From NCBI RefSeq assembly GCF_965641715.1, contig NZ_OZ282453.1: 64,000 nt of DNA. One strand, written 5' to 3'. The stretch is from Escherichia coli. GTDB taxonomy: Bacteria > Pseudomonadota > Gammaproteobacteria > Enterobacterales > Enterobacteriaceae. Under the pieces are notes generated by a model. That model worked only from the letters and a program-made list of their open reading frames with translations, was not told the DNA's origin and did not search any database. Position numbers and translations under genes: made by a program. Positions 8,649 to 60,099 of this stretch are shown piece by piece (position 1 is the first letter of the stretch; each line of letters starts with the position of its first letter).

Positions 8649-8655
8649 TGAACTA

Positions 8656-9309
8656 TCACTCAGGGAACAAGTTGATTTGAAGCAAACTGCCAATGTATTT
8701 ACCAGTGCTTTTAATTTTTCGCTTTGATGGCTTACACGAATTCAGGTTGACACCAGCCTGGCTAGATATTGGCTTGTATTGCCGCTCCGCCAGTACGATC
8801 AGGTCTGCCGCGTCTTTTAGCTTTCCATCGTTAGCCAGTTCCAATGCTCGATCCGCCATTTGCCCGCATTGTTGAATCAGCTTAAGTTGCGATACCTCCA
8901 GTCGCAATTGCTGGATTCGTTCTACCACTTTCGCCCTAATGCGCTTAGTTTCACGCATTCCCATTCTTAATGCCTGGTTGCCAGTAAGTGAGTAAACCTC
9001 TTTTTCTTTCCTGAAGTTTGCGGCTTTACCGTCAGCTTGGACGCGCATTTTATGCGCTTCCAAGAATTCGCCCTCCAATTCATCCCTGATCTTCGCGTTG
9101 AATCTGTCGTTCTTGAGTTCATTTAACCCTTCCGCCTTGCGGATCTGGTTGATTAACTCCAACAATTCATCACTGCGGATACGCCACTCGCTATCAACCT
9201 GTACCAAGTCAAACATGTTGTTGCTCCCGTTTTGCTGCCATAGGGCAACGGCTCGCCAGCCTTTATCACCTCCTTTAGTTGTTGCGATTCTTAACTGAAT
9301 GGTTATCAA
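8656..9309 (-). CDS. Hypothetical island protein, charged/coiled-coil-rich (217 aa as ORF; likely start at internal ATG 9216, 186 aa)
   Basis: ORF translation; GGGAG-type RBS upstream of internal ATG at 9216; no domain recognised. Confidence 0.45.
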   Translation of the reverse strand: MITIQLRIATTKGGDKGWRAVALWQQNGSNNMFDLVQVDSEWRIRSDELLELINQIRKAEGLNELKNDRFNAKIRDELEGEFLEAHKMRVQADGKAANFRKEKEVYSLTGNQALRMGMRETKRIRAKVVERIQQLRLEVSQLKLIQQCGQMADRALELANDGKLKDAADLIVLAERQYKPISSQAGVNLNSCKPSKRKIKSTGKYIGSLLQINLFPE

Positions 9310-9380
9310 AACGCTGCGTTAATATCATTGATATGTATCAAATTTGTTTTGTGACGCGACAATGCCTTGTGAATATCAAT

Positions 9381-9404
9381 AAAAAACCCAGCGCTATGGC
9401 TGGG
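9381..9404 (-). terminator. Intrinsic terminator-like hairpin downstream of HTH-protein gene
   Basis: aaaaaa-CCCAGC-gctatg-GCTGGG on plus strand, i.e. hairpin followed by T6 on minus strand. Confidence 0.45.
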
Positions 9405-9437
9405 CTTCGTTTAATGAGATGGGATTGAAAGCGGGTT

Positions 9438-10220
9438 TTATTTATCTCCCAGATTGTATTCCCAGTTGGGAAGTAAAGTTATCAGCTTGTCACCTTTCTT
9501 GCCTTTGCCGATCTGGTTGCCGTTCTCGTCTTTCTTGTGTGTGATTTCCTGGTCAACCTTAATCAATCCTCTCTCTTTGGCTTGCTCAATCAGTCGGTAG
9601 AATGCGCCGTTACTAATCGGCTTCCGGTTACCGTCGTTATCCATCGCAGTGATTTTCTGTTGCAGTCCGGCGTTATTGCCCAGGTATTCGCCACCTAACG
9701 CCGCCAGTACCTGACACAACATGCCGACACTGTATTTTTTCGGATTTGGGTTAATCCATTCTTTAGCTCCCATCTCTTTTTTGTCGTTGGGCGCTTGTTC
9801 TGCTGCTACTGCGTTCACCTTTTCATCTCCCATCTTGTTACCGCTTGCTGTGCGCTTAATTTCTTCCAGTTCTCTCTCAAGCTCACCTATACGTAATTCA
9901 CGCTCGATAATTACCCCGCGCAGCACATCATCATCACCGTGAGGGCTTGCCTGAATCCAGTTACCATTGGCGAGCGGTAGGAGGGCATAAATTCCGAACA
10001 GGTCACAAAGCGCGGCAAGTGTATTAAAATCAGGTTCCCGGCGTCCCTCCATCCAGTGGCTAACAGCGCCTTTTGTGACTGGTTCGCCTTTCTTGCTTTT
10101 AACACCCATGCGATCCAGTGCGGCGGCTATCTCTTCGCATTTAATGCCACGACCGCCAGCATAGCCCGCCGCTTTCGCGGCCCCTTTGAGGATGTCGTGA
10201 ATTTTCATTTCGTAACTCAT
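9438..10220 (-). CDS. Putative HTH (XRE-like) DNA-binding protein with uncharacterised C-terminal domain (260 aa from second ATG)
   Basis: Helix-turn-helix-like segment ...EEIAAALDRMGVKSKKGEPVTKGAVSHWMEG...; GGGAGA RBS 8 nt upstream of ATG at 10220. Confidence 0.55.
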   Translation of the reverse strand: MSYEMKIHDILKGAAKAAGYAGGRGIKCEEIAAALDRMGVKSKKGEPVTKGAVSHWMEGRREPDFNTLAALCDLFGIYALLPLANGNWIQASPHGDDDVLRGVIIERELRIGELERELEEIKRTASGNKMGDEKVNAVAAEQAPNDKKEMGAKEWINPNPKKYSVGMLCQVLAALGGEYLGNNAGLQQKITAMDNDGNRKPISNGAFYRLIEQAKERGLIKVDQEITHKKDENGNQIGKGKKGDKLITLLPNWEYNLGDK

Positions 10221-10226
10221 AATTTT

Positions 10227-10257
10227 ATCTCCCATCTCATGAACTATGGTGGGAGAT
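10227..10257. promoter_or_regulatory. Inverted repeat ATCTCCCA-N15-TGGGAGAT overlapping RBS/start of the HTH gene (candidate operator)
   Basis: Arms at 10227-10234 and 10250-10257 seen directly in sequence; the left arm coincides with the RBS/first-codon sequence, so arm identity may be partly coding-driven; function inferred. Confidence 0.3.
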
Positions 10258-10316
10258 TAACACGGCGGGCCTGTGGCGGGTAAGTGTAACGGGAGAGAAT
10301 GTTGATTCAGGTCACA

Positions 10317-10337
10317 AAAACCCGGCGCGGGGCCGGG
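10317..10337 (-). terminator. Intrinsic terminator-like hairpin downstream of the 158-aa island ORF (copy 2 of 21-mer)
   Basis: Identical to 8628-8648. Confidence 0.45.
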
Positions 10338-10359
10338 CTGTGTTAGTACGTCGTTGCTC

Positions 10360-10836
10360 TTAGTTCATGAGGAGATCTTTAAATTCGACGCCGTATTCAT
10401 GGGCAATGTCGCCTCTATAGTAGATGTTATCTTTCAGGATATATCCGACGTTTCTCAGGACGTGAGAACACTCTCTTACTGCTGCCTCTTTACCCCTTAA
10501 AACATCCTCCCCGCTAACTTCTTCGCCGCTGTACTTCACTGCGATGTTGTCTGCTGCACGCTCTGCTGCTTCCAGGCAATTAATCTTCACTTTTCCCCGA
10601 TTCTCCCAGGCAAAATCGCGGCCATAAATCCCCATTGCATCAACCATCTTTTGCGCAGTAGTGCGCTCATCCACCCATTCAGTGCGTTCGAACTTCTCGC
10701 CAGCAGCTACCCTTGCCGCCAGTTGTTCGTGTTGAGTCTGTACGGCCGCAGCCTCTTCTTCCCATTTGCCTTGCTCGTTGTATACGATGAAGCCAGTGAT
10801 GACTGCAGCGATTAGTAACTTGTCCAGAAAATTCAT
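10360..10836 (-). CDS. Hypothetical membrane-anchored protein (158 aa, N-terminal hydrophobic helix)
   Basis: ORF translation MNFLDKLLIAAVITGFIVY...; strong AGGAGGA RBS upstream of ATG. Confidence 0.5.
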   Translation of the reverse strand: MNFLDKLLIAAVITGFIVYNEQGKWEEEAAAVQTQHEQLAARVAAGEKFERTEWVDERTTAQKMVDAMGIYGRDFAWENRGKVKINCLEAAERAADNIAVKYSGEEVSGEDVLRGKEAAVRECSHVLRNVGYILKDNIYYRGDIAHEYGVEFKDLLMN

Positions 10837-11089
10837 AGCTTCCTCCTATCTGTTCAATTACCCGGCATCTCTTGCCGTTGAACGTATTAAACAAAATGCC
10901 AGTCAGGGATAAAGCGATCTGCGTCATAAAGTCCATCCCCCATCTCATTGATATTGATGGGAGATTGTTTAATTGGTCAGAAATTAAGCGTTTATGTGCG
11001 CTGCCGGGTATCCACCTCCTATCTGAAGATGGAAAGATGGGTGATATAATGTGATGGCAATTGGTGGATTGCGTGGTTTTTACAATGAT

Positions 11090-11120
11090 AAGGGGCTGGC
11101 GTAATGCTGGCCCCTTTGTT
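11090..11120 (+). terminator. Plus-strand-specific hairpin plus T-run (candidate terminator of a short plus-strand transcript)
   Basis: aggggctggc-gtaat-gctggcccc-tttgttt; stem needs G-U wobble pairs so folds only as plus-strand RNA. Confidence 0.3.
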
Positions 11121-11356
11121 TATCCGGTATCCGGTATCCGGTATAAGCGGGCGTGTATCCGGTAGCGGGGATATGGGCGCGTGTACGTGAAATCTGGCAA
11201 ATTAGCAGGGTAATTGTGAGGGAATTTTTGCGTAGGAGCGTTTGTGGCTGGTAGCTCAAAATTGAGCTTTGCTTTTCATTCAATGACTTAGGTTAATTCT
11301 AGCAAAACGCTAGGATTGAATGTCCGCCAGTCTGCTTCCCCTAGCGTGGGATTTGG

Positions 11357-13723
11357 TCAACGTCTGCGCGGCTGCAAAATTCCTCCGGGTCGTTGTGATT
11401 CACGCTGCATCAGTCGCATCGCTGTGTTTTCTATGGTCTGCTGCAGCGCTTTTGAGTCTTCCTCTGTCCAGCCGTTGTTAGCCTGGATGTTGAACGTATT
11501 GTTCATCGTGATTCCGCCACCGCCTACCAGATCGCGGCCCGGTGTAACTCGTCCACCTTCACCCGGGATCATGTACTGTTTCCCGCCAGTGGATGTAAAT
11601 AGCTCCGGTACTCCGTGCTCCCCGACCCTATAAAGATTGCCACCGTTAACAGCCCCGCCGTTGTAACGAGCGCCAGCCAGTCCAAGCGTTTTGGCGGCAG
11701 CTACGCCAGTAGTAAGCCCGGTAAGTCCAGTGGCCCCAGCGCCGCCCATCGTGGCTACGTTAGCCAGGTATGCAGGAGTGGCCCACGCCGATCCTAATGC
11801 TGTAGCCTCTGCTAGTGCTTTAGCTGTTGCGGCTGCGTTTGCGGCTTCACCAATTAGCTGCTGTTTAACCCACTCAGCACCCATCTGGACAATGCCACCG
11901 ACCACAGAAGACAGGATCGTACTGCCAACGTTGGCAAGTGACTCTTGCAGCGATTGAGTACCGTTTATCAGTCCGGTAAATGCGCTGCCAGCGCCAGACG
12001 ATAACCCATCGACCATATTCCCGATGAGGCCATTTATATCGCTTTGTTTCTTCCACTGCTGCCACTGGAGATCCAGAACCCTTTGTTCATGTGCGATCTC
12101 TTCCTGGCGCAACTGCTCTTCGGTAGCCCCAAGATCTAGAAGCATTTGCTTGCGAACAGCCCATTCATTTTGGATCTTCTGTATTGGGTCAATCTGAGCT
12201 TTCTGCTTATCCTGCTCACTGACAAGACTGTCCCATTTCGCTTTCTGCTTGCGGATGGCTTCAGCTTCATCAATTGCTGCGAGTGTACTTGCTCGCTGTT
12301 TCGCGCTGATCAACCGTTTCTGCTCAGCCGCTTCCAGGTCTTCTACTGCTTTTTTCCGTTTATTGAGCGCCGCTAGTTCGGGATCGTATTTTTCCACCAA
12401 TGAAAGGCCGCTTGCTTCCTTACGTTCGCGTTCTCTTTGTGCCTGTTTGGCTGCCTGCTTAGCGGCGTTTTCTGCTTGTTTGGCTGCTCTTTCTTTCGCC
12501 CTGGTGTTCTCTTCTTCCTTGCGCTTATTCTCTTCTAACTCCTTGTTTTGTTCGCGTAATTTAACGATTTCCTCATGATGCGCCTTTGTCAGCTGGCCTT
12601 CTTTCAGTGCCCGATCTATATCAGCGTTTGCGTTGCCTTTTAGCTGTTCCTGTTTAACTTGCAGATGTTTAATCATCATTTCGCCAGTGGCAATCGCTGC
12701 CGCAGACGCTCCAGCATTCAGAGCTTCATTTAACGCTCTCTGACGTTCTTCTGCTGTTAATGCCTCGTTGCTGTATCGAAGTAGCGCATCAACGTATTTC
12801 TCCAGTTCTGCGCGGCCTGCCGCAGTTGCTGGTTCCATTGCTTTTAGGATGCTCAGAAGGCTTTGCGCTTCATAGGAAGACGGGTTTTTGCGGAACTGCG
12901 CCATAGCGTTATAAAGCGCCATAGCTTCACCCTCTGTGATTCTGTACTTAGCTCCCAGCCCTTCAATGACCGCTGATAACTGTTTGCCAAGCGCTGCACC
13001 GAATGCGCCTTCCTTGCTTAATTTGTTGAGCACTTCACTCAGTGAATTTCCTGACACGCCCAGCGCGTCGAGTTCTCTTGCTACCGTTCCCAGGTCGCCG
13101 CCTTTCATCCATCCTGCATTAGAAAATTCAGTGATAGCCCGGCCCGCTTCCCGCGTTTCTTCCTGGAGTGTTTTTAGCGCCCGCACGGCCTGCTCTTTCA
13201 TTACGGCGGCGGCAATGGCGTTGTTCTGTGTGGCTTCGTAATATGAATCACTGAAAGCGTTAACGCCCTGGGTGGATTTGCCGATCACGGCGTCGATTGA
13301 TGCTAATGCCTCCTTCATCCTTTCAGCGCTATCCGTTGCGTCGTCCATGCTGTCCGTTAGGCTGTTGGCAATCGCCCCGCCAATAGCCATCACCGCCCCC
13401 ATGACCGCACCGCCAGTACCGAAGGCAGCGGCAAGTTGTGCACCCTGCACAGCGAACGCCTGGAGCGCATTACCGCCCATCTGCAATTGAGTGGCAAGGT
13501 CTGCGATCTGGTATGATGCGTTACGGATTGCCGGGGAAAGGTTGGTTTTGACTGCGGCAGACGTTTTGGTCATCTGCGTGTTCAGTTTTTTGACGCCACT
13601 GTCAGCGCGTTTTGCGCCGCGTTCTATACTGTCAAAAGCCTGGTCCGCTTCTTGTTGTGCTGCCAGGAGTTTACCAGTACGGGCGTCGACCTCATAGTAT
13701 ATGGTCCCAAGATTCCCACTCAT
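11357..13723 (-). CDS. Phage tail tape-measure-like protein (788 aa)
   Basis: Long Ala/Gly/Gln-rich coiled-coil protein; C-terminal motif ...GGNLYRVGEHGVPELFTSTGGKQYMIPG... resembles the conserved C-terminal block of siphovirus tape-measure proteins. Confidence 0.6.
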   Translation of the reverse strand: MSGNLGTIYYEVDARTGKLLAAQQEADQAFDSIERGAKRADSGVKKLNTQMTKTSAAVKTNLSPAIRNASYQIADLATQLQMGGNALQAFAVQGAQLAAAFGTGGAVMGAVMAIGGAIANSLTDSMDDATDSAERMKEALASIDAVIGKSTQGVNAFSDSYYEATQNNAIAAAVMKEQAVRALKTLQEETREAGRAITEFSNAGWMKGGDLGTVARELDALGVSGNSLSEVLNKLSKEGAFGAALGKQLSAVIEGLGAKYRITEGEAMALYNAMAQFRKNPSSYEAQSLLSILKAMEPATAAGRAELEKYVDALLRYSNEALTAEERQRALNEALNAGASAAAIATGEMMIKHLQVKQEQLKGNANADIDRALKEGQLTKAHHEEIVKLREQNKELEENKRKEEENTRAKERAAKQAENAAKQAAKQAQRERERKEASGLSLVEKYDPELAALNKRKKAVEDLEAAEQKRLISAKQRASTLAAIDEAEAIRKQKAKWDSLVSEQDKQKAQIDPIQKIQNEWAVRKQMLLDLGATEEQLRQEEIAHEQRVLDLQWQQWKKQSDINGLIGNMVDGLSSGAGSAFTGLINGTQSLQESLANVGSTILSSVVGGIVQMGAEWVKQQLIGEAANAAATAKALAEATALGSAWATPAYLANVATMGGAGATGLTGLTTGVAAAKTLGLAGARYNGGAVNGGNLYRVGEHGVPELFTSTGGKQYMIPGEGGRVTPGRDLVGGGGITMNNTFNIQANNGWTEEDSKALQQTIENTAMRLMQRESQRPGGILQPRRR

Positions 13724-14012
13724 AATATCTTTATCCGCGTTGTGCGGACACCTCCGATTATTCTTTACTCTAATAATTTCACAATGAAACAGTTTATTGC
13801 CGCTTCAGTGGCTTCGTGTTCCGGTTTGCTTCGATCAATCACAAAAAATACAGCTTAATAGAATCAATGGCTTATAAAGTTGTATTAGCTATGTTTCTTC
13901 GTCCGTGCCACTGAAAACCCAGTTTTTCCAATGGAATCAATACTGATATGTATCCATACTGTTTTTCACATAATGTACGTTATGCGCACTACGGGAAACG
14001 TACTGAATTTAT

Positions 14013-14243
14013 TTACTGGTCGCCGTTCAGTTCATGCAGAGTCTGTTCTGGCAATGAATCCAGCCAGTTTTCTGCATCCTCCCTGTAACACTCCAGGATG
14101 CAACGGTTTGTGAAGTTGATGAAAGCGGTCAGTGATTCTGCTTCGTCGTTCCTGTGCGTTCTCCTGGCGTGCTTGCGTAGTCGTTTCGCGTCTGCCAGTT
14201 GGTCATTGAGTATCTTCAGTCTGTCGGCAATATCATCGTTCAT
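14013..14243 (-). CDS. Hypothetical small island protein (76 aa)
   Basis: ORF with GAGGGAGAG RBS upstream of ATG. Confidence 0.4.
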   Translation of the reverse strand: MNDDIADRLKILNDQLADAKRLRKHARRTHRNDEAESLTAFINFTNRCILECYREDAENWLDSLPEQTLHELNGDQ

Positions 14244-14378
14244 GTCGTCTCTCCCTCGCGCGCGCGTCGTACTTGTCCGAAAATTACCCCCATAAAAGCG
14301 CCCCTCATATAGTGCAAAATCCCGGCTGACGCGGATCTCAGTGGGTTTTAGCAGTGAAAACTGACATCAAAAACGGCT

Positions 14379-14426
14379 CGCTAAGGTCCGCTAAGTATCC
14401 GCTATCGTTCGCTAACCCCCCGCTAA
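14379..14426. repeat. Five direct CGCTAA/CGCTAT hexamers phased at 10-11 bp (candidate protein-binding array)
   Basis: Copies at 14379, 14389, 14400, 14410, 14421; one helical turn apart; intergenic. Confidence 0.5.
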
Positions 14427-14430
14427 CCTA

Positions 14431-14796
14431 TTAGATATCGCATCCAACGCTATTGAGCTGGCTATGTATATCGGCGCGAATTAACTTCAGGCGTTTACAA
14501 AATTCGCGTTCTTCCGAATTAAGCTCGCGGCCACCTTGTTTCGAGGCAATGAGCTTGTTGATGGTGGAAAGCGAATATTCACTCCATATACGAAGCATTT
14601 GTCGCTTCATTGGTTGCTCGCTCAATGGTGAGTTTTTCAGGTCTGACACGCGCTCTGCGACGGTTCTTGCGATGCCTTGTACCACTCGTAGTGCCAACAT
14701 GATGATTTTCTCCGGACTTGTGCTAATATAGTTCCCGAACATTGTTTCGAGACTGCTTATCCTGTTTGTCTTGTCCGATTTGTTCATTGGTCGCAT
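14431..14796 (-). CDS. Hypothetical island protein (121 aa)
   Basis: ORF only; weak RBS, so lower confidence. Confidence 0.35.
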   Translation of the reverse strand: MRPMNKSDKTNRISSLETMFGNYISTSPEKIIMLALRVVQGIARTVAERVSDLKNSPLSEQPMKRQMLRIWSEYSLSTINKLIASKQGGRELNSEEREFCKRLKLIRADIHSQLNSVGCDI

Positions 14797-14838
14797 TGTT
14801 AAGTCAGCCGGGGTAATTCCCGGCTTTCTTTTATCCGA

Positions 14839-15381
14839 TCAGTACCGAATCCCTATCGCATTGAATACGCGTTTCCGTTGCTCAGCTTCAGGATCGGCGG
14901 CCATTTCTGGTTCTGGCTCCGGCATAGACGGGGCGGCATCAAAATGCTCAATTTCACGACCGAAATACGAGTTCAGGTCAATACCTGCCGAACTATCCAC
15001 TCCATCAAAATAGCGACGCTGTTCCTCGGTGAGACAGCTACCCAGACGTTCCTCAACCTGCGCCATAAACTCAGCATCCGGTGAGAAGTACTCATCCGGA
15101 GTCGGAGCACCGCTCTGTTTGTGCATCTCCATTTTCTCTGCGTTCGTTTTCAGCCCGGCAATGCGTTTCTCCAGTCCGGCGGCTTTAATAGCGTCAGCAA
15201 CGATTTGTGGGATCTGCGGTTTAATTATTTCGATAACTTCATTGCTGATTAATTTAAACTGGGCCATACGGATCGCTTTAATCTGCTTATTTAACAGTGC
15301 GCGTTCCCCTTCGTTGGCGGTTTTATCACGCTGTGCTACCAGTTCATCGCCTTTGTTTGTCAGTACATCAAATGCGTCCAT
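14839..15381 (-). CDS. Hypothetical island protein (180 aa, acidic C-terminus)
   Basis: ORF with strong GGAGGAGG RBS. Confidence 0.5.
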   Translation of the reverse strand: MDAFDVLTNKGDELVAQRDKTANEGERALLNKQIKAIRMAQFKLISNEVIEIIKPQIPQIVADAIKAAGLEKRIAGLKTNAEKMEMHKQSGAPTPDEYFSPDAEFMAQVEERLGSCLTEEQRRYFDGVDSSAGIDLNSYFGREIEHFDAAPSMPEPEPEMAADPEAEQRKRVFNAIGIRY

Positions 15382-15398
15382 TGTCTTTCCTCCTCCGA

Positions 15399-15725
15399 TT
15401 ATTTAAAAGTGCTTATTGACACGCCGAAACGACGACTTAATTCAAAAAGGAGTCGCGCCTTTGCAGTGCCTTCCATGTCTTCCGGCATTTCAGACTGAAG
15501 TTTATCAGCTACTTCATCAACAAGTGGCCGAACCGTTTCCACGAACTTGTCCGCAATATAATCAGCAGAACGCATCACTTTTTCCTGGAATTCCTCACGG
15601 CGTACCTGGGCGGCTGATTTAGGGGCTGTCGTGCGCTGAAAATAACTGTCTAATGAATGCATGGCATCTGCTCCTTTTACTTTGATTGCTGTTATTTCTT
15701 TAATTGTGTTTGCTTTGATTTTCAT
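15399..15725 (-). CDS. Hypothetical island protein (108 aa)
   Basis: ORF with AAGGA RBS; tightly packed after upstream gene. Confidence 0.5.
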   Translation of the reverse strand: MKIKANTIKEITAIKVKGADAMHSLDSYFQRTTAPKSAAQVRREEFQEKVMRSADYIADKFVETVRPLVDEVADKLQSEMPEDMEGTAKARLLFELSRRFGVSISTFK

Positions 15726-15801
15726 GCTGCCTATTCCTTCAGAAATTGCGGTAGTTTGCTTTTTAAATCAATAAGTTATTTGATAATCTCAGTAGCTGTT
15801 T

Positions 15802-15993
15802 TCATTGGTGGCGAGCGCCTTTGTTTTTATAGAATTCCAAAATCTCAGATCGGATAAACTTAATTCTTGAGCCAATCGGACTGACCGGGACGGGCCAGCC
15901 TTTAATCTTGTTCATCCACCGGAATATTGTCCGACGGGTAACGCCGAATAAAGCTGCTACCTCGTTAACCGTCATTAATTCGCTATCATTCAT
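15802..15993 (-). CDS. AlpA/excisionase-family small HTH regulator (63 aa)
   Basis: Translation ...MTVNEVAALFGVTRRTIFRWMNK... matches AlpA-type prophage regulators; typical partner of P4-type integrases. Confidence 0.6.
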   Translation of the reverse strand: MNDSELMTVNEVAALFGVTRRTIFRWMNKIKGWPVPVSPIGSRIKFIRSEILEFYKNKGARHQ

Positions 15994-16280
15994 GTTCTCA
16001 CCTCAAAAAGTAGCGGTGAGGAAAATATGGAGAAAACCCTCACCGCGCCCTGAATGAAATTAAAGACCAACATTACTGTTGATACTTATTATTATATTCC
16101 TCCTGTCCCTGTTTCACATCTTTTACCATATAGTGAAAGGGGATATTCTGTAATGTTTACAAAACTTTTAATTAGCAAAAAATAATTGCGCATCTCACGT
16201 AATGCAGGGATAATATTACTCAAGGGCTGGTTGCCCTTACTCAAAATGTGATCTATAACTACAACGATCTATTTCACTTC

Positions 16281-16307
16281 CCCGCTTTCTCCGGCGGGAT
16301 TTTTTTG
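16281..16307 (+). terminator. Plus-strand intrinsic terminator-like hairpin within 600-bp noncoding stretch
   Basis: cccgc-tttctccg-gcggg followed by a ttttttt. Confidence 0.4.
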
Positions 16308-17122
16308 CCTGCAATCTGGCACCATTGCGCACATTAAAATTAGATGCCATTTAAAAGCGATATAACGCGTTCTGCCGGGCTTAATTTTGGCTATCCACTT
16401 GGAAGGGTAAGCCTGTTTTGATTCGTCTGGCGTGGAATGGTGCGGCGGTAATATCAGATCTCAGCGTTCTGCGTGGTGGGATGAAATAGCCTGGCAGGAT
16501 TTGCGTGTGGTTTGCTCTCCCAAAAAATGGGGTAATGGCGCTGGCTGGATGGCAGGACTCCGCGCTGATTACTGGATGGCTGAAAATTTAATGAAATCGC
16601 ATCAATTTTAATGCGTCTAAATCGCTCTGTGGCGACGTGAAGTTTTCAGGTAAGCAAGTGTAGCTGTGTGGTGTGTTCATCGCGTTACTGGCACCATTCC
16701 GTTCGAATTTGGCGCTATCAGGATGGTTTGCGGTGGTCGGCGGCGGGGATAAACTTGCTTGAGTGGTCACCTCAGCCTGCTGTGCGTCGTGTGATGGTAC
16801 TGTCTGCACCTGGCTATACGCTGCTTTGCTGCTGTTTCCTGTCTGGTCTGTATACGCGATAAAACCCATCGGCTTTACAGTGAGTGAGTTTTTTGCGCTT
16901 TGCTTTCCATTCGGTTTGCTTACTGCTGCTGTGTGTCTGTGCGGTAGCTCAGAAAGCTGTCGATGATAACCATCACTGCCAGACCGTCTTTTGAGCTGGC
17001 GATTGCTCGAAGTCTTCCGAAGGTCCGCTGGGCTTGTTGCTTGTTTGTGTTCTTTTAAAATGCGCGCCTCTTACTTTCTCTTAAAAAGAAAAAAGGAATA
17101 TACAGATCTCATACTATGTGTG

Positions 17123-17273
17123 TCCCAAATGTCACACGTCATGGCCTGACCTGTATCCCAAATGTCACACGTCACCCTCTGACCTGTATCCCAAATGTCA
17201 CACGTACCTGTGTCCCAAATGTCACACGTCTATTGTTAATTAATTGTTGACCTGTGTCTCAAATGTCACACGT
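17123..17273. repeat. Iteron array: five direct copies of TCCCAAATGTCACACGT (fifth TCTCAAATGTCACACGT)
   Basis: Copies start 17123, 17156, 17189, 17213, 17257; AT-rich block tattgttaattaattgttga between copies 4 and 5. Confidence 0.65.
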
Positions 17274-17338
17274 CTGTTGATGGTTTAAGTAATAAAAAGG
17301 GCCACCATTTTAGGTGACCCATTGATGCGTTTTAGTCG

Positions 17339-18103
17339 TTATCTTGCGTTCTCGACCTGAAAAAGCATTCTGTATTTTCTTGCGTGCTGACCAATAACAT
17401 ATTCCCCGTATGGCTCAATGAGTCCTAACTCAACCAGGATTTTCATCTGGCGAATTACGGTGCGGCGATTCATGCCCCATTCATCAGCTATTTTTGCCTG
17501 GCAAACTTCAGATACATAAGATCCATCATTCTGCTTTCTTGCTGCTGATGCAATGCTGGATAATACGCTCCAGGCTGTAGCTTTAGCTTTATTCTCGCAA
17601 CCACTTCTGACAAATGCCTTACGTGCCGCACCCAAACAGACATAACTGCAATAAATTCCTTTTTCTTCCGTTTGGTATTGTGTCTCTTTATCCTGCATGG
17701 CTTCCGGTTCTTCCGGCGCTTCCTGCTGTGGTGCTGTCTGCGAAGTTTTAGCGGCCATACTGCGTAGCTCGTTCACGATATCAGTAGCTGATTTCTTCTC
17801 GCTTTTAGTTTCCTGCGTGACTGATAAATACTCACCTTGTAACGCCAGGAAGTCAGCGCGGGCGTTTGCCTGGCTTTGTTCTGGTGATTCAGGTTCTGCA
17901 TCGGCAGGTGATGAAATCGGTGATACACGCGCCCAGCCTGTTTTGGCGTTGCATTCCCAGCGATAACCATTAAAGCGGATATCATTCAGGCCATCATCAA
18001 TGGCGCTCCGTACTTCTTCCGGGATCGCGTCGATTTTCTGAAGGCTGTGTTTACCGAGTGATTCGCCTTGCCGTGGGGCGTAGGCGGTTGGTAAAATATT
18101 CAT
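17339..18103 (-). CDS. Putative winged-HTH DNA-binding protein, candidate replication initiator or regulator (254 aa)
   Basis: C-terminal HTH-like segment ...GMNRRTVIRQMKILVELGLIE...; perfect AAGGAGA RBS; iterons immediately 3' of gene. Confidence 0.5.
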   Translation of the reverse strand: MNILPTAYAPRQGESLGKHSLQKIDAIPEEVRSAIDDGLNDIRFNGYRWECNAKTGWARVSPISSPADAEPESPEQSQANARADFLALQGEYLSVTQETKSEKKSATDIVNELRSMAAKTSQTAPQQEAPEEPEAMQDKETQYQTEEKGIYCSYVCLGAARKAFVRSGCENKAKATAWSVLSSIASAARKQNDGSYVSEVCQAKIADEWGMNRRTVIRQMKILVELGLIEPYGEYVIGQHARKYRMLFQVENAR

Positions 18104-18349
18104 GTGGGATTTCTCCTTTTTACTTGTTTCCCATATCGCCCGGATTGGTTAGCGGCCTTCCGGGCTTTTTGTTGCGTTGATCCTATTTTCGATCCCCGGA
18201 TTTTTTATTACAAACTTGGCTTAATCATTGATTTTATTGGTATAGCTGTATAAAAGGATAACAGGATAAAAGGGTGATAGATTGTGTAACCTGTTAACCT
18301 TTTATACCAGTAAGGCGAAAGAAAAGCCGGACGAATCCGGCCTTATAGT

Positions 18350-19555
18350 TCACGGCTCCAGCGGATTACCGCCACCAGCCAATATCTGGTCGATGGCGTC
18401 GCTGTAGTCCTGCATCATGGCCCGCCGTTGCTTCAGATAGGCCGCCTGGTTATAAACGCCGCGCACACCTTTCGGAACGTGGGCCAGTTGGATTTCGATC
18501 CAGTCTGGTGAGTATCTGCCGTACTCGTTAAGTGCGGTTGAAAAGGTGGTTCGCCAGCCGTGACCAGTGGCTATCGACTTGTATCCGATACGCTCCAGGG
18601 CTTTAAGGATGGCACTGGCTGAAAGTGGCTTATCCATGAATCGACCAGGGAACACAAAAGCACTGTATCCGCTGCGGGTAAACTGGTCCTGTAATAGCTC
18701 GACCGCCTGCCGGGATAGCGGGACCACATGCGGGCGGCGGGCCTTCATGACTTCAGCGGGTAGGGTGATGGTTGCCGATTCCAGATCTACCCACTCCCAG
18801 CGCATTAAACGCAGTTCTGCGGTCCTTAGGGCGCTTAATATAAGCAAACGTATTGCCGTCTGAATCTGAACGCTCCCGGCTCTCTCAAGGGCTTTGTAGA
18901 AGGCCGGGATTTCGTTAATTTGTATCCATGCGTTATGGCCTGGGCGTCGGGCTTTCAATGCCGTGTCCAGATCTGCAACCGGATTTCGGTTAACCAGTTC
19001 AGTGATAACGGCAAATTTGAAGATTTCCCCTATACGCTGCCGTAATTTTCGGGCCTGTTCCGGCGCGGTGCGCTCTTTCTTCTGAAGCAATGCCAGCACG
19101 TCACGGGCCGTTATATCGACAATCGACCGCTTGCCAAGTACCGGATAAACATCTTTCTCCAGTGCCGATCTAACTTGTTTCGTGTAAGACTCAGACCAAC
19201 CGCTCACTCTGGTAGCAAACCAGTCTTCCGCTACCGTCTTAAAACTTGCCGCCATGTTGAGCGCATCAATGGCTTTCTCCTTGCGCGCTTCTTCCATTGG
19301 GTCAATTCCCTGGGCGATGAGTAAACGGCTCTCTGTGGCGCGTTTACGTGCTTCCTTCAAGGTAATCAGCGGATATACCCCAATAGCCTGTAACCGCTCT
19401 TTCTTGTCTATCCAGTACCGGAATCGCCAGTATTTGCTGCCATTGGGATGTACCAGCAAGAACAGGCCAGGTGTCTGTGAATCGGTGAGTTTGTAGGGCT
19501 TGTCCTTCGGCTGGGCGGCCTCTATGCCCTTTGCTGTCAGTGGTGTCTTGCTCAA
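18350..19555 (-). CDS. Tyrosine-type site-specific integrase, P4-like family (401 aa, TTG start)
   Basis: Translation ...GLFLLVHPNGSKYWRFRYWIDKKERLQAIGVYP... typical N-terminal arm-binding region of P4-type integrases; located at island edge. Confidence 0.85.
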   Translation of the reverse strand: MSKTPLTAKGIEAAQPKDKPYKLTDSQTPGLFLLVHPNGSKYWRFRYWIDKKERLQAIGVYPLITLKEARKRATESRLLIAQGIDPMEEARKEKAIDALNMAASFKTVAEDWFATRVSGWSESYTKQVRSALEKDVYPVLGKRSIVDITARDVLALLQKKERTAPEQARKLRQRIGEIFKFAVITELVNRNPVADLDTALKARRPGHNAWIQINEIPAFYKALERAGSVQIQTAIRLLILSALRTAELRLMRWEWVDLESATITLPAEVMKARRPHVVPLSRQAVELLQDQFTRSGYSAFVFPGRFMDKPLSASAILKALERIGYKSIATGHGWRTTFSTALNEYGRYSPDWIEIQLAHVPKGVRGVYNQAAYLKQRRAMMQDYSDAIDQILAGGGNPLEP

Positions 19556-39568: not shown

Positions 39569-40028
<460 letters not shown>

Positions 40029-50434: not shown

Positions 50435-51361
50435 ATGAATTATTCTTTAAAACAATTAAAGGTTTTCGTCACAGTAGCGCAGGAGAAAAGTTTTAGTCGT
50501 GCAGGAGAGCGTATCGGCCTGAGCCAGTCGGCAGTAAGTCACAGTGTGAAGGAGCTGGAAAATCATACTGGTGTTCGCCTGCTGGACAGAACCACGCGTG
50601 AAGTGGTGCTTACAGATGCAGGGCAGCAGTTGGCTTTGCGTCTTGAGCGACTGCTGGATGAACTTAACAGCACGTTGCGCGATACCGGGCGTATGGGGCA
50701 ACAACTGAGCGGAAAAGTTCGGGTCGCTGCCAGCCAGACCATTTCCGCGCATCTTATTCCGCAATGCATTGCTGAAAGCCATCGCCGCTATCCAGATATT
50801 CAGTTTGTCCTGCACGATCGTCCGCAGCAGTGGGTGATGGAAAGTATTCGCCAGGGAGATGTCGACTTTGGCATCGTCATCGATCCAGGCCCAGTGGGCG
50901 ATCTGCAATGTGAAGCGATTCTTTCCGAGCCTTTCTTTCTGCTTTGCCATCGCGATAGCGCTTTGGCCGTGGAAGATTATGTACCCTGGCAGGCATTACA
51001 GGGAGCGAAATTGGTGTTGCAGGATTACGCGTCAGGCAGCCGACCGCTGATTGACGCAGCGCTGGCGCGCAATGGTATTCAGGCGAATATTGTGCAGGAG
51101 ATTGGACATCCGGCGACGCTGTTCCCGATGGTAGCCGCAGGCATCGGCATCAGTATTCTTCCCGCACTGGCGCTACCATTGCCTGAAGGTAGCCCACTGG
51201 TGGTAAAGCGCATTACGCCGGTTGTTGAACGCCAGTTGATGCTGGTGCGCAGGAAGAACCGTTCACTTTCCACCGCCGCTGAAGCGTTATGGGACGTGGT
51301 ACGAGACCAGGGCAATGCGCTAATGGCTGGTCGGGAAGGGGATCCGTTGTATCAGATATAG
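50435..51361 (+). CDS. yfeR: LysR-family transcriptional regulator YfeR (308 aa)
   Basis: N-terminal LysR HTH; divergent from yfeH. Confidence 0.85.
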
Positions 51362-51693
51362 ATATCGATATGAGTCGTATTTTCAACAGGATTTAGAAGG
51401 GATACATTCAGAGACAAACGCTGCTCTTTCTCCTGCGCCTTTTCTGCCTGCTGTCTCTGCAACTGCGCCAGTTGTGTTTCCAGTAGGGTGATTTGCTGTT
51501 GAATCAATTCGGCCTGTTTTTGCTTGTCTTCAGCACTGCCGCTAGTGTCTACAATCTCTTTAATTTGTTGAGTGAGTTTGATGATTTGCTGACTTATCCG
51601 CGCGATTTGTGAAGCAACATCGCTACCTTGTGATGCCCTGTTACTACTCTGTGTTTGTATGGAAGGAATTGAAGTTGAAGAGATAGTGGCCAT
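51352..51693 (-). CDS. FlxA-like Gln-rich coiled-coil protein (113 aa)
   Basis: Translation ...[48 protein letters not shown]... resembles FlxA-like family; overlaps yfeR 3' end by 10 nt. Confidence 0.4.
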
Positions 51694-51781
51694 TGTTCAG
51701 TCCTCGTCACTGTACGAGGTAATATCGGTAGAAGAACAAGGAACTTGAGAAGAAAAATCAATCTTACAAATCGCAGATAGC

Positions 51782-55307: not shown

Positions 55308-57497
55308 ATGTTTGTGGAGCATAACCTGATAAAAAATATCAAGATATTCACACTAGCGTTTACGCTCACCGTGGTACTTATTCAGCTATCCCGTTTTATT
55401 TCGCCACTTGCCATTATCCATTCCAGTTATATCTTTCTGGCGTGGATGCCACTGTGCGTAATGCTGTCAATCTTGTTTATCTTTGGCTGGCGCGGTGTCG
55501 TTCCCGTTTTATGCGGGATGTTTTGCACCAATCTGTGGAACTTTCATCTCTCTTTTTTACAGACTGCGGTCATGCTCGGCAGCCAGACATTTGTCGTGTT
55601 GTGTGCCTGCGCAATATTACGCTGGCAGCTGGGGACGCGTTGGCGTTATGGATTGACCAGCCGATATGTCTGGCAACGTCTGTTCTGGCTTGGTTTGGTG
55701 ACGCCGATCGGCATCAAATGCAGCATGTATCTTGTGGGGAGCTTCTTTGATTTCCCGCTAAAGATATCCACCTTTTTCGGCGATGCGGATGCCATTTTCA
55801 CGGTCGTGGATTTACTAAGCCTTTTCACCGCTGTTCTGATTTACAACATGCTTTTCTACTATCTCACTCGCATGATTGTAAGTCCCCACTTTGCGCAGAT
55901 ATTGTGGCGCAGGGATATCGCTCCGTCATTGGGCAAAGAGAAACGCGCATTTACCTTAAGCTGGCTGGCAGCGTTAAGCGTGCTGCTACTTCTGCTGTGC
56001 ACACCTTATGAAAACGACTTTATTGCCGGTTACCTGGTACCCGTTTTCTTCATCATCTTTACCCTCGGGGTCGGTAAGCTTCGCTATCCGTTTTTAAATC
56101 TCACCTGGGCTGTTTCAACGCTTTGCCTGCTGAATTACAACCAGAACTTTTTGCAAGGGGTGGAAACCGAATATTCGCTGGCATTTATTCTCGCGGTGCT
56201 GATTTCCTTTAGCGTTTGCCTGCTCTATATGGTGCGCATTTATCATCGCAGTGAATGGCTTAATCGCCGCTGGCATTTGCAGGCGCTGACCGATCCGTTA
56301 ACGCTCCTGCCCAACTTTCGTGCGTTGGAACAAGCGCCGGAGCAAGAGGCGGGCAAGAGTTTTTGCTGCCTGCGCATTGATAATCTTGAGTTTATGAGTC
56401 GTCATTACGGGTTGATGATGCGCGTTCACTGTATCCGATCAATTTACCGTACGCTGCTGCCATTGATGCAGGAAAACGAAAAGTTGTATCAATTGCCGGG
56501 TAGTGAACTGCTGTTAGTGCTGAGCGGGCCGGAAACGGAAGGGCGACTCCAGCATATGGTTAACATCCTGAATAGTCGGCAAATTCACTGGAACAATACC
56601 GGGCTGGATATGGGCTATGGTGCTGCCTGGGGGCGTTTTGATGGAAATCAGGAAACCTTGCAACCCTTGTTGGGGCAGTTAAGCTGGCTGGCGGAGCAAT
56701 CCTGCGCACATCATCATGTGCTGGCGCTGGATAGCAGAGAGGAGATGGTTTCCGGGCAGACCACTAAACAGGTGCTATTGCTGAATACCATTCGCACGGC
56801 GTTAGATCAGGGTGATTTGCTGCTCTACGCCCAGCCAATTCGCAACAAAGAGGGTGAAGGTTATGATGAGATCCTCGCGCGACTGAAATATGACGGCGGC
56901 ATTATGACCCCGGATAAGTTTCTGCCCCTTATTGCTCAGTTTAACCTTAGCGCGCGTTTTGATTTGCAAGTGCTGGAATCCTTGTTGAAGTGGCTGGCAA
57001 CACACCCTTGCGACAAAAAAGGCCCGCGCTTTTCAGTTAATTTAATGCCGCTCACGCTGCTGCAAAAGAATATTGCCGGGCGGATTATTCGTCTATTTAA
57101 GCGTTATCACATCTCCCCGCAGGCGGTCATTCTTGAGATCACCGAGGAGCAGGCGTTTTCTAACGCAGAAAGCAGCATGTACAACATCGAGCAGCTGCAT
57201 AAGTTTGGTTTCCGGATTGCGATTGATGACTTTGGCACCGGATATGCCAACTACGAACGGTTAAAGCGTTTGCAGGCTGATATCATCAAAATTGATGGCG
57301 TCTTTGTGAAAGATATCGTCACGAATACGCTGGATGCGATGATTGTGAGATCAATTACCGATCTGGCGAAAGCGAAGTCATTGAGTGTGGTTGCGGAGTT
57401 TGTTGAGACGCAACAGCAGCAGGCGCTATTGCATAAGCTCGGAGTGCAATATCTGCAAGGGTATTTGATTGGACGCCCGCAGCCATTAGTTGATTAA
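55308..57497 (+). CDS. yfeA: Membrane-anchored c-di-GMP phosphodiesterase YfeA (MASE1-GGDEF-like-EAL, 729 aa)
   Basis: N-terminal polytopic region, C-terminal EAL-type domain; start at ATG 55308. Confidence 0.85.
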   Translation: MFVEHNLIKNIKIFTLAFTLTVVLIQLSRFISPLAIIHSSYIFLAWMPLCVMLSILFIFGWRGVVPVLCGMFCTNLWNFHLSFLQTAVMLGSQTFVVLCACAILRWQLGTRWRYGLTSRYVWQRLFWLGLVTPIGIKCSMYLVGSFFDFPLKISTFFGDADAIFTVVDLLSLFTAVLIYNMLFYYLTRMIVSPHFAQILWRRDIAPSLGKEKRAFTLSWLAALSVLLLLLCTPYENDFIAGYLVPVFFIIFTLGVGKLRYPFLNLTWAVSTLCLLNYNQNFLQGVETEYSLAFILAVLISFSVCLLYMVRIYHRSEWLNRRWHLQALTDPLTLLPNFRALEQAPEQEAGKSFCCLRIDNLEFMSRHYGLMMRVHCIRSIYRTLLPLMQENEKLYQLPGSELLLVLSGPETEGRLQHMVNILNSRQIHWNNTGLDMGYGAAWGRFDGNQETLQPLLGQLSWLAEQSCAHHHVLALDSREEMVSGQTTKQVLLLNTIRTALDQGDLLLYAQPIRNKEGEGYDEILARLKYDGGIMTPDKFLPLIAQFNLSARFDLQVLESLLKWLATHPCDKKGPRFSVNLMPLTLLQKNIAGRIIRLFKRYHISPQAVILEITEEQAFSNAESSMYNIEQLHKFGFRIAIDDFGTGYANYERLKRLQADIIKIDGVFVKDIVTNTLDAMIVRSITDLAKAKSLSVVAEFVETQQQQALLHKLGVQYLQGYLIGRPQPLVD

Positions 57498-57525
57498 CAG
57501 GCGTAAAAAAGCCGGGGAATTATCC

Positions 57526-58864
57526 CATAAGCGCTAACTTAAGGGTTGTGGTATTACGCCTGATATGATTTAACGTGCCGATGAATTACTCTCACGATAA
57601 CTGGTCAGCAATTCTGGCCCATATTGGTAAGCCCGAAGAACTGGATACTTCGGCACGTAATGCCGGGGCTCTAACCCGCCGCCGCGAAATTCGTGATGCT
57701 GCAACTCTGCTACGTCTGGGGCTGGCTTACGGCCCCGGGGGGATGTCATTACGTGAAGTCACTGCATGGGCTCAGCTCCATGACGTTGCAACATTATCTG
57801 ACGTGGCTCTCCTGAAGCGGCTGCGGAATGCCGCCGACTGGTTTGGCATACTTGCCGCACAAACACTTGCTGTACGCGCCGCAGTTACGGGTTGTACAAG
57901 CGGAAAGAGATTGCGTCTTGTCGATGGAACAGCAATCAGTGCGCCCGGGGGCGGCAGCGCTGAATGGCGACTACATATGGGATATGATCCTCATACCTGT
58001 CAGTTCACTGATTTTGAGCTAACCGACAGCAGAGACGCTGAACGGCTGGACCGATTTGCGCAAACGGCAGACGAGATACGCATTGCTGACCGGGGATTCG
58101 GTTCGCGTCCCGAATGTATCCGCTCACTTGCTTTTGGAGAAGCTGATTATATCGTCCGGGTTCACTGGCGAGGATTGCGCTGGTTAACTGCAGAAGGAAT
58201 GCGCTTTGACATGATGGGTTTTCTGCGCGGGCTGGATTGCGGTAAGAACGGTGAAACCACTGTAATGATAGGCAATTCAGGTAATAAAAAAGCCGGAGCT
58301 CCCTTTCCGGCACGTCTCATTGCCGTATCACTTCCTCCCGAAAAAGCATTAATCAGTAAAACCCGACTGCTCAGCGAGAATCGTCGAAAAGGACGAGTAG
58401 TTCAGGCGGAAACGCTGGAAGCAGCGGGCCATGTGCTATTGCTAACATCATTACCGGAAGATGAATATTCAGCAGAGCAAGTGGCTGATTGTTACCGTCT
58501 GCGATGGCAAATTGAACTGGCTTTTAAGCGGCTCAAAAGTTTGCTGCACCTGGATGCTTTGCGTGCAAAGGAACCTGAACTCGCGAAAGCGTGGATATTT
58601 GCTAATCTACTCGCCGCATTTTTAATTGACGACATAATCCAGCCATCGCTGGATTTCCCCCCCAGAAGTGCCGGATCCGAAAAGAAGAACTAACTCGTTG
58701 TGGAGAATAACAAAAATGGTCATCTGGAGCTTACAGGTGGCCATTCGTGGGACAGTATCCCTGACAGCCTACAAAACGCAATTGAAGAACGCGAGGCATC
58801 GTCTTAACGAGGCACCGAGGCGTCGCATTCTTCAGATGGTTCAACCCTTAAGTTAGCGCTTATG
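57526..58864 (+). mobile_element. IS186 (IS4 family) insertion sequence, ~1339 bp
   Basis: Terminal inverted repeats CATAAGCGCTAACTTAAGGG... / ...CCCTTAAGTTAGCGCTTATG; 10-bp target duplication GGAATTATCC at 57516-57525 and 58865-58874. Confidence 0.88.
57581..58693 (+). CDS. insL: IS186 transposase InsL (370 aa)
   Basis: Translation MNYSHDNWSAILAHIGKPEELD... recognised as IS186 transposase. Confidence 0.9.
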   Translation: MNYSHDNWSAILAHIGKPEELDTSARNAGALTRRREIRDAATLLRLGLAYGPGGMSLREVTAWAQLHDVATLSDVALLKRLRNAADWFGILAAQTLAVRAAVTGCTSGKRLRLVDGTAISAPGGGSAEWRLHMGYDPHTCQFTDFELTDSRDAERLDRFAQTADEIRIADRGFGSRPECIRSLAFGEADYIVRVHWRGLRWLTAEGMRFDMMGFLRGLDCGKNGETTVMIGNSGNKKAGAPFPARLIAVSLPPEKALISKTRLLSENRRKGRVVQAETLEAAGHVLLLTSLPEDEYSAEQVADCYRLRWQIELAFKRLKSLLHLDALRAKEPELAKAWIFANLLAAFLIDDIIQPSLDFPPRSAGSEKKN

Positions 58865-58896
58865 GGAATTATCCCCGGCTTTTTTATGTATGGTGC

Positions 58897-60099
58897 TTAC
58901 AGCACCAGTGCTGCGATTGACGCAGACAGCACACTCACCAGGGTAGAGCCGTAAACCAGTTTCAGACCGAAGCGAGAAACCACGTTACCTTGCTCTTCAT
59001 TCAGGCCCTTAACTGCACCTGCGATAATCCCGATTGAAGAGAAGTTAGCGAAGGAAACCAGGAACACAGAGATGATGCCTTCAGCACGCGGAGAGAGCGT
59101 GGAAGCAATTTTCTGCAGATCCATCATCGCAACGAACTCGTTAGAAACCAGTTTGGTCGCCATGATACTGCCCACTTGCAGTGCTTCACTGGAAGGAACA
59201 CCCATCACCCATGCAATCGGATAGAAGATGTAGCCCAGGATGCCCTGGAAGGAGATGCTGTAGCCAAACCAGCCAGTCACGGTAGCAAACAGTGCGTTCA
59301 GCGCGGCGATCAGGGCGATAAAGCCGATCAGCATCGCGGCAACGATAATGGCAACTTTGAAACCTGCCAGAATGTATTCACCCAGCATTTCGAAGAAGCT
59401 CTGACCTTCGTGCAGGTTGGACATCTGAATGTTTTCTTCACTGGCATCAACACGGTAAGGGTTGATCAGCGACAGCACGATAAAGGTGCTGAACATATTC
59501 AGTACCAGTGCTGCAACGACATATTTCGGCTCCAGCATGGTCATGTATGCACCAACGATGGACATCGACACGGTGGACATCGCCGTTGCTGCCATGGTGT
59601 ACATACGGTTACGGGAGATTTTGCCAAGGATATCTTTATAGGCAATAAAGTTTTCAGACTGACCCAGAATCAGGGAGCTGACGGCGTTAAAGGATTCCAG
59701 TTTGCCCATACCGTTGACTTTGGAGAGCAGGAAACCAATTGCGCGGATAATCACCGGCAACACGCGAATGTGCTGGAGAATACCGATCAGTGCAGAGATA
59801 AAGACGATTGGGCACAGTACTTTCAGGAAGAAGAATGCCAGGCCTTGATCATTCATGCTACCAAAGACGAAGTTAGTCCCTTCGTTGGCAAATCCGAGCA
59901 GTTTTTCGAACATTTCGGAGAAGCCTTTCACGAAGCCTAAACCAACGTCGGAGTTCAGGAAGAACCACGCCAGTAACACTTCGATAACAAGCAGTTGAAT
60001 AACATAACGGATACGAATTTTTTTGCGGTCGCTGCTTACCAGCAGTGCGAGAATCGCAACAACGGCAAGTGCCAGTACAAAATGAAGGACGCGGTCCAT
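58897..60099 (-). CDS. nupC: Nucleoside:H+ symporter NupC (400 aa)
   Basis: CNT-family permease translation; start at [11 protein letters not shown]. Confidence 0.9.

Follow-up and report, generated by a model that had tools for sequence, protein, structure and literature searches.

A copy of IS186 splits the predicted shared terminator hairpin of pdeA and nupC in an Escherichia coli strain and most likely represents an insertion separate from that of K-12

A 64-kb stretch of Escherichia coli DNA (the whole of which is referred to here as the window) carries a copy of IS186 between the genes pdeA (yfeA) and nupC, the same interval in which E. coli K-12 carries a copy of this element. The locus raises the question of whether the two copies go back to one insertion event, and of what the insertion did to the 3' ends of the two genes that it separates. 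The evidence set out below leads us to a reading that we consider very probable: an intact IS186 transposed into a hairpin that is the predicted shared terminator of pdeA and nupC and split it, in an event separate from the one in K-12.

The flanking genes were assigned by profile searches. An earlier reading made from the letters of the DNA only (the sequence-only reading) had placed the element between convergent yfeA and nupC, and this arrangement was recovered: pdeA (55308–57497, + strand), a gene for a MASE1-GGDEF-EAL c-di-GMP phosphodiesterase, matched the Pfam families MASE1 and EAL, and nupC (58897–60099, - strand), a gene for a nucleoside:H+ symporter, matched TIGR00804 with 487 bits and is followed by mntH, as in K-12. 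With 2190 nt, pdeA is collinear with the pdeA genes of K-12 and E. coli C and shows two amino acid differences; its nucleotide differences from K-12 number 2, 2 and 23 at the first, second and third codon positions. The NupC protein is identical to that of K-12, and the 21 differences between the genes are synonymous (0, 0 and 21 by codon position). In the vicinity, the Rfam search returned only two upstream tRNA-Ala genes.

The element itself (57526–58864, + strand) is 1339 bp long, lies in a duplication-flanked stretch that extends from 57516 to 58874, and has its transposase gene insL co-directional with pdeA. Its earlier naming as IS186 was borne out by the DNA, all 1339 bases of which agree with K-12 IS186C and, again at 100%, with the copy that E. 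coli C carries at this site, by the family profiles that the transposase matched, and by the length and ends, both of which are common to this copy and all three copies of K-12. Perfect terminal inverted repeats of 23 bp, both of which were also returned by an independent repeat finder, bound the element on the left (57526–57548, + strand, CATAAGCGCTAACTTAAGGGTTG) and on the right (58842–58864, - strand), where the IS reads CAACCCTTAAGTTAGCGCTTATG. The insL gene (57581–58693, + strand) encodes an IS4-family DDE transposase of 370 amino acids that scored 133.3 bits against NCBIfam NF033592 (cutoff 115), matched Pfam PF01609 (DDE_Tnp_1) and is identical to K-12 InsL3 at all 370 residues. The intact open reading frame and ends, the identity to the active K-12 copies and the lineage-specific insertion (see below) together suggest that this intact IS186 copy is probably active. 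A promoter-like match (TTAACA-18 nt-AATTAT, 9/12) at 57494–57523 points into the IS toward insL, and its -10 element coincides with the hairpin loop and the core of the duplication; the match is also present in genomes with an empty site and thus carries little weight.

Two copies of GGAATTATCC flank the IS, at 57516–57525 and at 58865–58874, and in the left copy the inner stem bases GG, the loop region AATTAT and the inner stem bases CC can be distinguished. The independent repeat finder returned the duplication as the 12-nt repeat GGGAATTATCCC (57515–57526 and 58864–58875); because the first base of the IS is C and its last base is G, the length of the duplication can formally be put anywhere from 10 to 12 bp, and under the same counting convention the three IS186 copies of K-12 have 10-bp duplications. 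Read from the pdeA stop codon (TAA, 57495–57497), the full order is CAGGCGT, AAAAAA, GCCGG, GGAATTATCC, the IS, GGAATTATCC, CCGGC, TTTTTT, ATGTATGGTGC and the nupC stop codon (58897–58899, - strand). The A6 tract and the outer 5' arm form a left terminator remnant (57505–57515, AAAAAAGCCGG), the outer 3' arm and the T6 tract a right one (58875–58885, CCGGCTTTTTT), and the two are contiguous in empty-site genomes.

When the IS and one copy of the repeat were deleted in silico, the site read AAAAAAGCCGGGGAATTATCCCCGGCTTTTTT or, with wider flanks, CAGGCGTAAAAAAGCCGGGGAATTATCCCCGGCTTTTTTATGTATGGTG. That this deletion restores a hairpin had been proposed in the sequence-only reading, and the exact restored sequence exists in real genomes. 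The comparison with strains lacking this IS copy, which had likewise been suggested, was carried out at the sequence level with an 810-nt query consisting of the window flanks with a single repeat copy, for which an end-to-end match was required. An uninterrupted site was thereby identified in 4461 of the 5426 complete E. coli genomes, and some strains with an empty site have the window's own pdeA DNA. In strain 33F4, for example, the empty site reads TTGATTAACAGGCGTAAAAAAGCCGGGGAATTATCCCCGGCTTTTTTATGTATGGT and the gap between pdeA and nupC measures only 49 bp. Four loci retrieved by an exact match to the PdeA protein of the window (L004–L007) have pdeA DNA identical to that of the window (0/2190 differences) and an empty site. 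In three of them (L005–L007) the site matches the reconstruction letter for letter, down to the GGTGCTTACAG variant that is specific to the window, and L004 differs from the reconstruction by two 1-bp indels, one in the hairpin and one in the T-run. A check on the structure, which was run on the loci of the window haplotype, found the single-copy GGAATTATCC site in L005–L009, and the nearest RefSeq relative, as judged from the nupC side (99.8%), has an empty site as well. The presence of real empty sites in strains with identical pdeA indicates that GGAATTATCC is a true target-site duplication and that the insertion is recent in the lineage of the window.

The arrival of the element at this position is ordinary IS186 targeting. 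A target consensus for IS186 was reportedly described by SaiSree et al. in 2001. IS186 inserts almost only at 5'-GGGG(N6/N7)CCCC-3', of which the K-12 genome has 19 N6 and 35 N7 sites, and in mutation-accumulation lines some of these sites were hit repeatedly and in either orientation, the latter because the target motif is palindromic (Lee et al. 2016, PMC5009759); IS186 was seen to behave likewise at its hot spot in the promoter of lon (Lyons et al. 2011, PMC3045373). The empty target GGGGAATTATCCCC reads GGGG-AATTAT-CCCC and is an exact N6 site, in line with the published motif (PMC5009759) and with the preference for GC-rich palindromes that had been attributed to IS186. No other N6 or N7 motif was found in the 64-kb window, where about 0.7–0.8 are expected by chance. 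In K-12, the reconstructed targets of all three copies are CGGGGA-N4-TCCCCG hairpins, and each duplication is 10 bp long. A 2024 preprint that links a large terminator family to IS186 was set aside; it concerns 135 E. coli homologues, as against three IS186 copies in K-12.

Among the complete genomes, three states of the site were found. It is empty in 4461 genomes (about 82%), is occupied by the IS in the orientation of the window in 465 (8.6%; E. coli C, ATCC 8739 (Crooks), ML35 and others), and is occupied in the K-12 orientation in 473 (8.7%), a figure that is inflated by laboratory strains of K-12, which make up most of this group, clinical isolates such as 14EC001 also being part of it. 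IS186 is therefore present at the site in about 17% of the sequenced strains. The genomes that share both site and orientation with the window (E. coli C, ATCC 8739, ML35 and about 460 others) have K-12-type flanks; over the IS and flanks they are 99.3–99.4% identical to the window, and the IS DNA of E. coli C is identical to that of the window. The K-12-type flanks, exemplified by K-12 (L001) and E. coli C (L002), whose pdeA and nupC DNA are identical to each other, have A as the first base of the stem, where the window has G (AAAAAAACCGGGG). This A shortens the ancestral stem by one pair and is also present in empty-site genomes of the K-12-type haplotype. Judged from these flanks, the insertion in the window is most likely separate from that of the E. 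coli C type. A further locus (L011; GCA_910664855.1, OU349842.1, positions 5219–5667) has IS186 at the same site and in the orientation of the window, the assembly giving way to Ns after 449 bp of the IS; its pdeA shows 20 synonymous differences from that of the window and represents a further haplotype, and L011 is possibly a fourth independent insertion. By flank haplotype and orientation, at least three and probably four independent insertions appear to have occurred at this site.

The opposite orientations in K-12 and E. coli C could also have arisen from a single ancestral copy that flipped in place by recombination between its terminal inverted repeats and the palindromic sequence beside them. 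In favour of a flip, the two strains have in common their pdeA and nupC DNA, the G-to-A stem variant, the duplication and the IS sequence, and the inverted repeat, counted together with the palindromic flank, reaches 45 nt at 91%. The perfect part of the repeat, however, measures only about 25 bp and is thus of marginal length for RecA recombination. Moreover, empty-site genomes with the exact K-12/C flank haplotype exist (100.0% over 810 bp), showing that an unoccupied target is available in that background, and experiments have documented that separate insertions can enter a single site either way round (PMC3045373, PMC5009759). We consider a flip in place unlikely, and separate insertions in K-12 and in E. 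coli C remain our preferred reading.

The hairpin into which IS186 inserted has the textbook layout of a shared two-way intrinsic terminator, a role that we assign to it for pdeA and nupC by prediction. It consists of an 8-bp stem and a tetraloop (core GCCGGGGA-ATTA-TCCCCGGC) and has, both in the reconstruction and in the empty-site genomes, an A6 tract upstream and a T6 tract downstream of the stem, so that on each strand the hairpin is followed by U6. For the core RNA (GCCGGGGA-AUUA-UCCCCGGC), energies of -16.1 kcal/mol (+ strand) and -17.0 kcal/mol (- strand) were calculated, and for the reconstructed 50-nt intergenic RNA -30.8 and -25.0 kcal/mol, respectively; the latter values correspond to z-scores of -7.9 (+) and -7.7 (-), and none of 200 shuffled sequences was as stable. 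The terminator element takes up 32 of the 49 intergenic bases. Relative to the pdeA stop, the A/T tract lies 7 nt and the hairpin stem 13 nt downstream; on the other side, the corresponding distances from the nupC stop are 5 nt and 11 nt, and in the window the nupC stop is 11 nt from the A/T tract. A scan that left the loop free recovered the A5-GCCGGGG-N6-CCCCGGC-T5 design in at least 120 unrelated bacterial genomes among the matches listed, a recurrence that fits a generic terminator form. The hairpin that the sequence-only reading had described as a bidirectional terminator between the convergent genes is stable on both strands, and its role as a terminator is a prediction.

Alternatively, the palindrome might be a mere GC-rich target of IS186 and not a working terminator, in which case its splitting would be without transcriptional effect. 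The literature searched for 3' ends comprised the 3'-end paper of Adams 2021, a re-analysis of Term-seq data and a paper on operons by long-read sequencing, and the portions of the supplements that were available (PMC6131387, PMC12207403 and PMC7815308) yielded only transcription start entries for the locus and no 3' ends of pdeA or nupC transcripts, as this alternative would have it; such K-12 datasets represent the occupied state of the site. In addition, the consensus terminator scan of an empty-site genome gave only an off-register call on the - strand and left the intact hairpin uncalled on the + strand, probably because pairing between the A6 and T6 tracts uses up the T-run in the algorithm of the scan, and the other K-12 copies went into comparable hairpins, at hokC and hokE, that have no T-runs. 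These points are outweighed, in our view, by the combination of an 8-bp GC stem, a tetraloop and T6 on both strands at 11–13 nt after two convergent stop codons, and by the recurrence of the same A5/T5 design in unrelated bacteria. We regard the absence of a terminator function as quite improbable and retain the reading of the hairpin as a two-way terminator.

As stated in the sequence-only reading, K-12 does carry IS186C between nupC and pdeA (MG1655 insL3, b2394, 2514273–2515617). This copy shares with that of the window the element, the target site, the 10-bp duplication and the neighbouring genes, but insL runs with pdeA in the window and with nupC in K-12 (insL3), and at the left junction the window has ...GGGTTGTGGTATTACGCC where K-12 has ...GGGTTGAACCATCTGAAG. 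The flanks are about 1.1–1.7% divergent from those of K-12, almost all differences being located at third codon positions. In addition, the first stem base is G in the window and A in the K-12 type, and the window has one extra G before the nupC stop; these variants lie close to the IS ends, within 11 bp on the left (G vs A) and within 21 bp on the right (extra G). Given the opposite orientation and the divergent flanks, the IS186 of the window is most likely an insertion independent of, and inverted relative to, K-12 IS186C. That the window instead holds the ancestral insertion of IS186C, inherited vertically or moved by homologous recombination, would fit the common site, the common 10-bp duplication and the 100% identical IS DNA, but is extremely unlikely in view of the orientation opposite to that in K-12, the flank variants so close to both IS ends, the empty site in strains with window-identical pdeA DNA, and the finding that in mutation-accumulation lines IS186 hits the same sites again, either way round (PMC5009759).

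The window is not K-12 DNA, a possibility that was ruled out by flanks that agree with MG1655 at 98.4–98.9%, by the gene content and by a different island at the CPZ-55 site. Among complete RefSeq E. coli genomes, the best match to the IS and flanks of the window was 99.4%, and the exact left junction had no match in the species-representative genomes. The genes xapR-xapB-xapA-yfeN (about 4.5 kb in K-12) are absent from the window. At their position (51352–51770), an open reading frame for a glutamine-rich, coiled-coil-looking protein of 113 amino acids was observed (51352–51693, - strand). Also absent is yfeS, about 960 bp of MG1655 (2537704–2538666) being missing at approximately 39571–39575 of the window. 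The interval from eutA to eutB, in which K-12 has the cryptic prophage CPZ-55, is occupied in the window by an integrase-bearing island (8650–19555) of largely unrelated sequence, which includes the integrase gene (18353–19555, - strand), an open reading frame of 788 amino acids with a weak tape-measure-like match (11360–13723, - strand) and several small helix-turn-helix open reading frames.

On either side of the IS, four of the eight stem pairs are retained (GGGA/UCCC) and the U-tract is gone, so the statement that each gene is left with half a stem holds. The remnant hairpin, which is composed of the 5' arm, the loop and UCC plus a C supplied by the IS, has an energy of about -6 kcal/mol, and the RNAs of the occupied junctions, with z-scores of -1.2 and -0.6, were no better than shuffled sequences. 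Nothing terminator-like was found at either junction by the consensus terminator scan. At the right end of the IS, the remnant hairpin is parted from T6 by CGGC, and a convincing terminator was not found on the + strand before this end. With each gene left with a 4-bp remnant stem and no U-tract, read-through from both genes is predicted.

Antisense to insL, the consensus scan identified a terminator-like hairpin inside the IS (58292–58311, - strand; GCCGGAAAGGGAGCTCCGGC followed by TTTTTTATTA), which, read from nupC, is GCCGGAAAGGGAGCUCCGGC-UUUUUUAUUA (58311–58292) and lies about 570 nt into the IS from the nupC side. Its z-score of -2.0 is marginal relative to shuffled sequences, and it may represent the first candidate stop for read-through from nupC. 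The region of this hairpin (58284–58311) starts with ATAAAAAAGCCGG, which is identical to the A-tract and 5' arm of the host (57504–57515) and perfectly complementary to 58875–58887; by a rough estimate, about 0.04 such matches are expected, and the match is probably due to chance. In a table of K-12 transcription starts (PMC7815308), an internal start on the + strand of insL-3 is given at 2515049. This start corresponds to IS position 774, inside the internal hairpin. On the other side, the pdeA 3' flank TAACAGGCGTAA (57495–57506) is 92% complementary to TTACGCCTGATA (57554–57565), just inside the left end of the IS, and in the predicted fold of the read-through RNA the two form a long-range stem around the remnant hairpin. 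This pairing is specific to the flank and orientation of the window and is probably also a matter of chance.

In the mechanism that we propose, IS186 transposed into the sole canonical target of the 64-kb window, the core of the 8-bp-stem hairpin, and cuts staggered by 10 bp led to the duplication of GGAATTATCC. The A-tract and the T-tract, and with them the outer arms of the stem, are now separated by 1.35 kb, and neither gene would be left with a stable hairpin and U-tract at its 3' end. Transcripts of pdeA would then continue into the IS, sense to insL, and transcripts of nupC would enter it antisense, probably as far as the internal hairpin and T6 at 58311–58292, and both mRNAs would lack the 3' stem-loop that would shield them from exonucleases. 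In K-12, the roles of pdeA and nupC would be swapped. The phenotypic effect is probably small, as suggested by Rho-dependent termination, low expression of pdeA and the frequency of both insertion states among natural and laboratory strains; either of the first two factors could render the missing hairpin functionally silent.

IS186, the rule by which it selects targets, the K-12 copy at this locus and recurrent hits in two orientations at canonical sites are already known. The additions made here are modest: an independent, inverted copy, and natural isolates in which the site is empty or filled either way. For annotation, this means that the feature should be labelled as an IS186 in the pdeA/nupC terminator and not as K-12 IS186C. 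The locus also provides a clean natural example of the published target specificity of IS186, together with a population figure for one site, and the natural states of the site offer a ready test of the role that a shared two-way terminator plays for convergent genes, with an effect that is likely to be modest. A wider interpretation, which we put forward tentatively and consider rather doubtful, is that the pdeA/nupC terminator is a natural, repeatedly used landing pad of IS186, that the GGGG(N6)CCCC specificity amounts to homing to terminator hairpins, and that the orientation sets which gene feeds sense transcription of insL. If this were true, the IS would land where no gene is broken, sense insL would be fed by read-through from pdeA in the window and from nupC in K-12, and expression of the transposase would be coupled to the regulation of c-di-GMP or of nucleoside uptake.

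Among the known IS186 hot spots, those in the lon promoter, fimA and menC are likewise motif-driven and were hit repeatedly and in either orientation (PMC5009759, PMC3045373). Insertions at these hot spots disrupt a promoter or coding sequence and cause a phenotype, whereas here an intergenic hairpin was hit and neither promoter nor coding sequence was lost. The K-12 copies IS186A and IS186B, located just downstream of hokC and hokE, likewise have 10-bp GG-N6-CC duplications, and their targets, as here, are hairpins, in their case with 8-bp stems and tetraloops (GCGGGGA-N4-TCCCCGC) in mRNA 3' regions; those hairpins, however, are without flanking A/T tracts and do not lie between convergent genes, while the pdeA/nupC site has both features. 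Insertion sequences that target REP palindromes (IS1397, ISKpn1 and members of the IS110 family such as ISPpu9) are likewise reported to home to extragenic palindromic hairpins between genes. In these elements, intergenic homing limits damage to the host; they belong to other transposase families and use another mode of recognition, IS186 reading a short GGGG/CCCC motif and not a repeat family.
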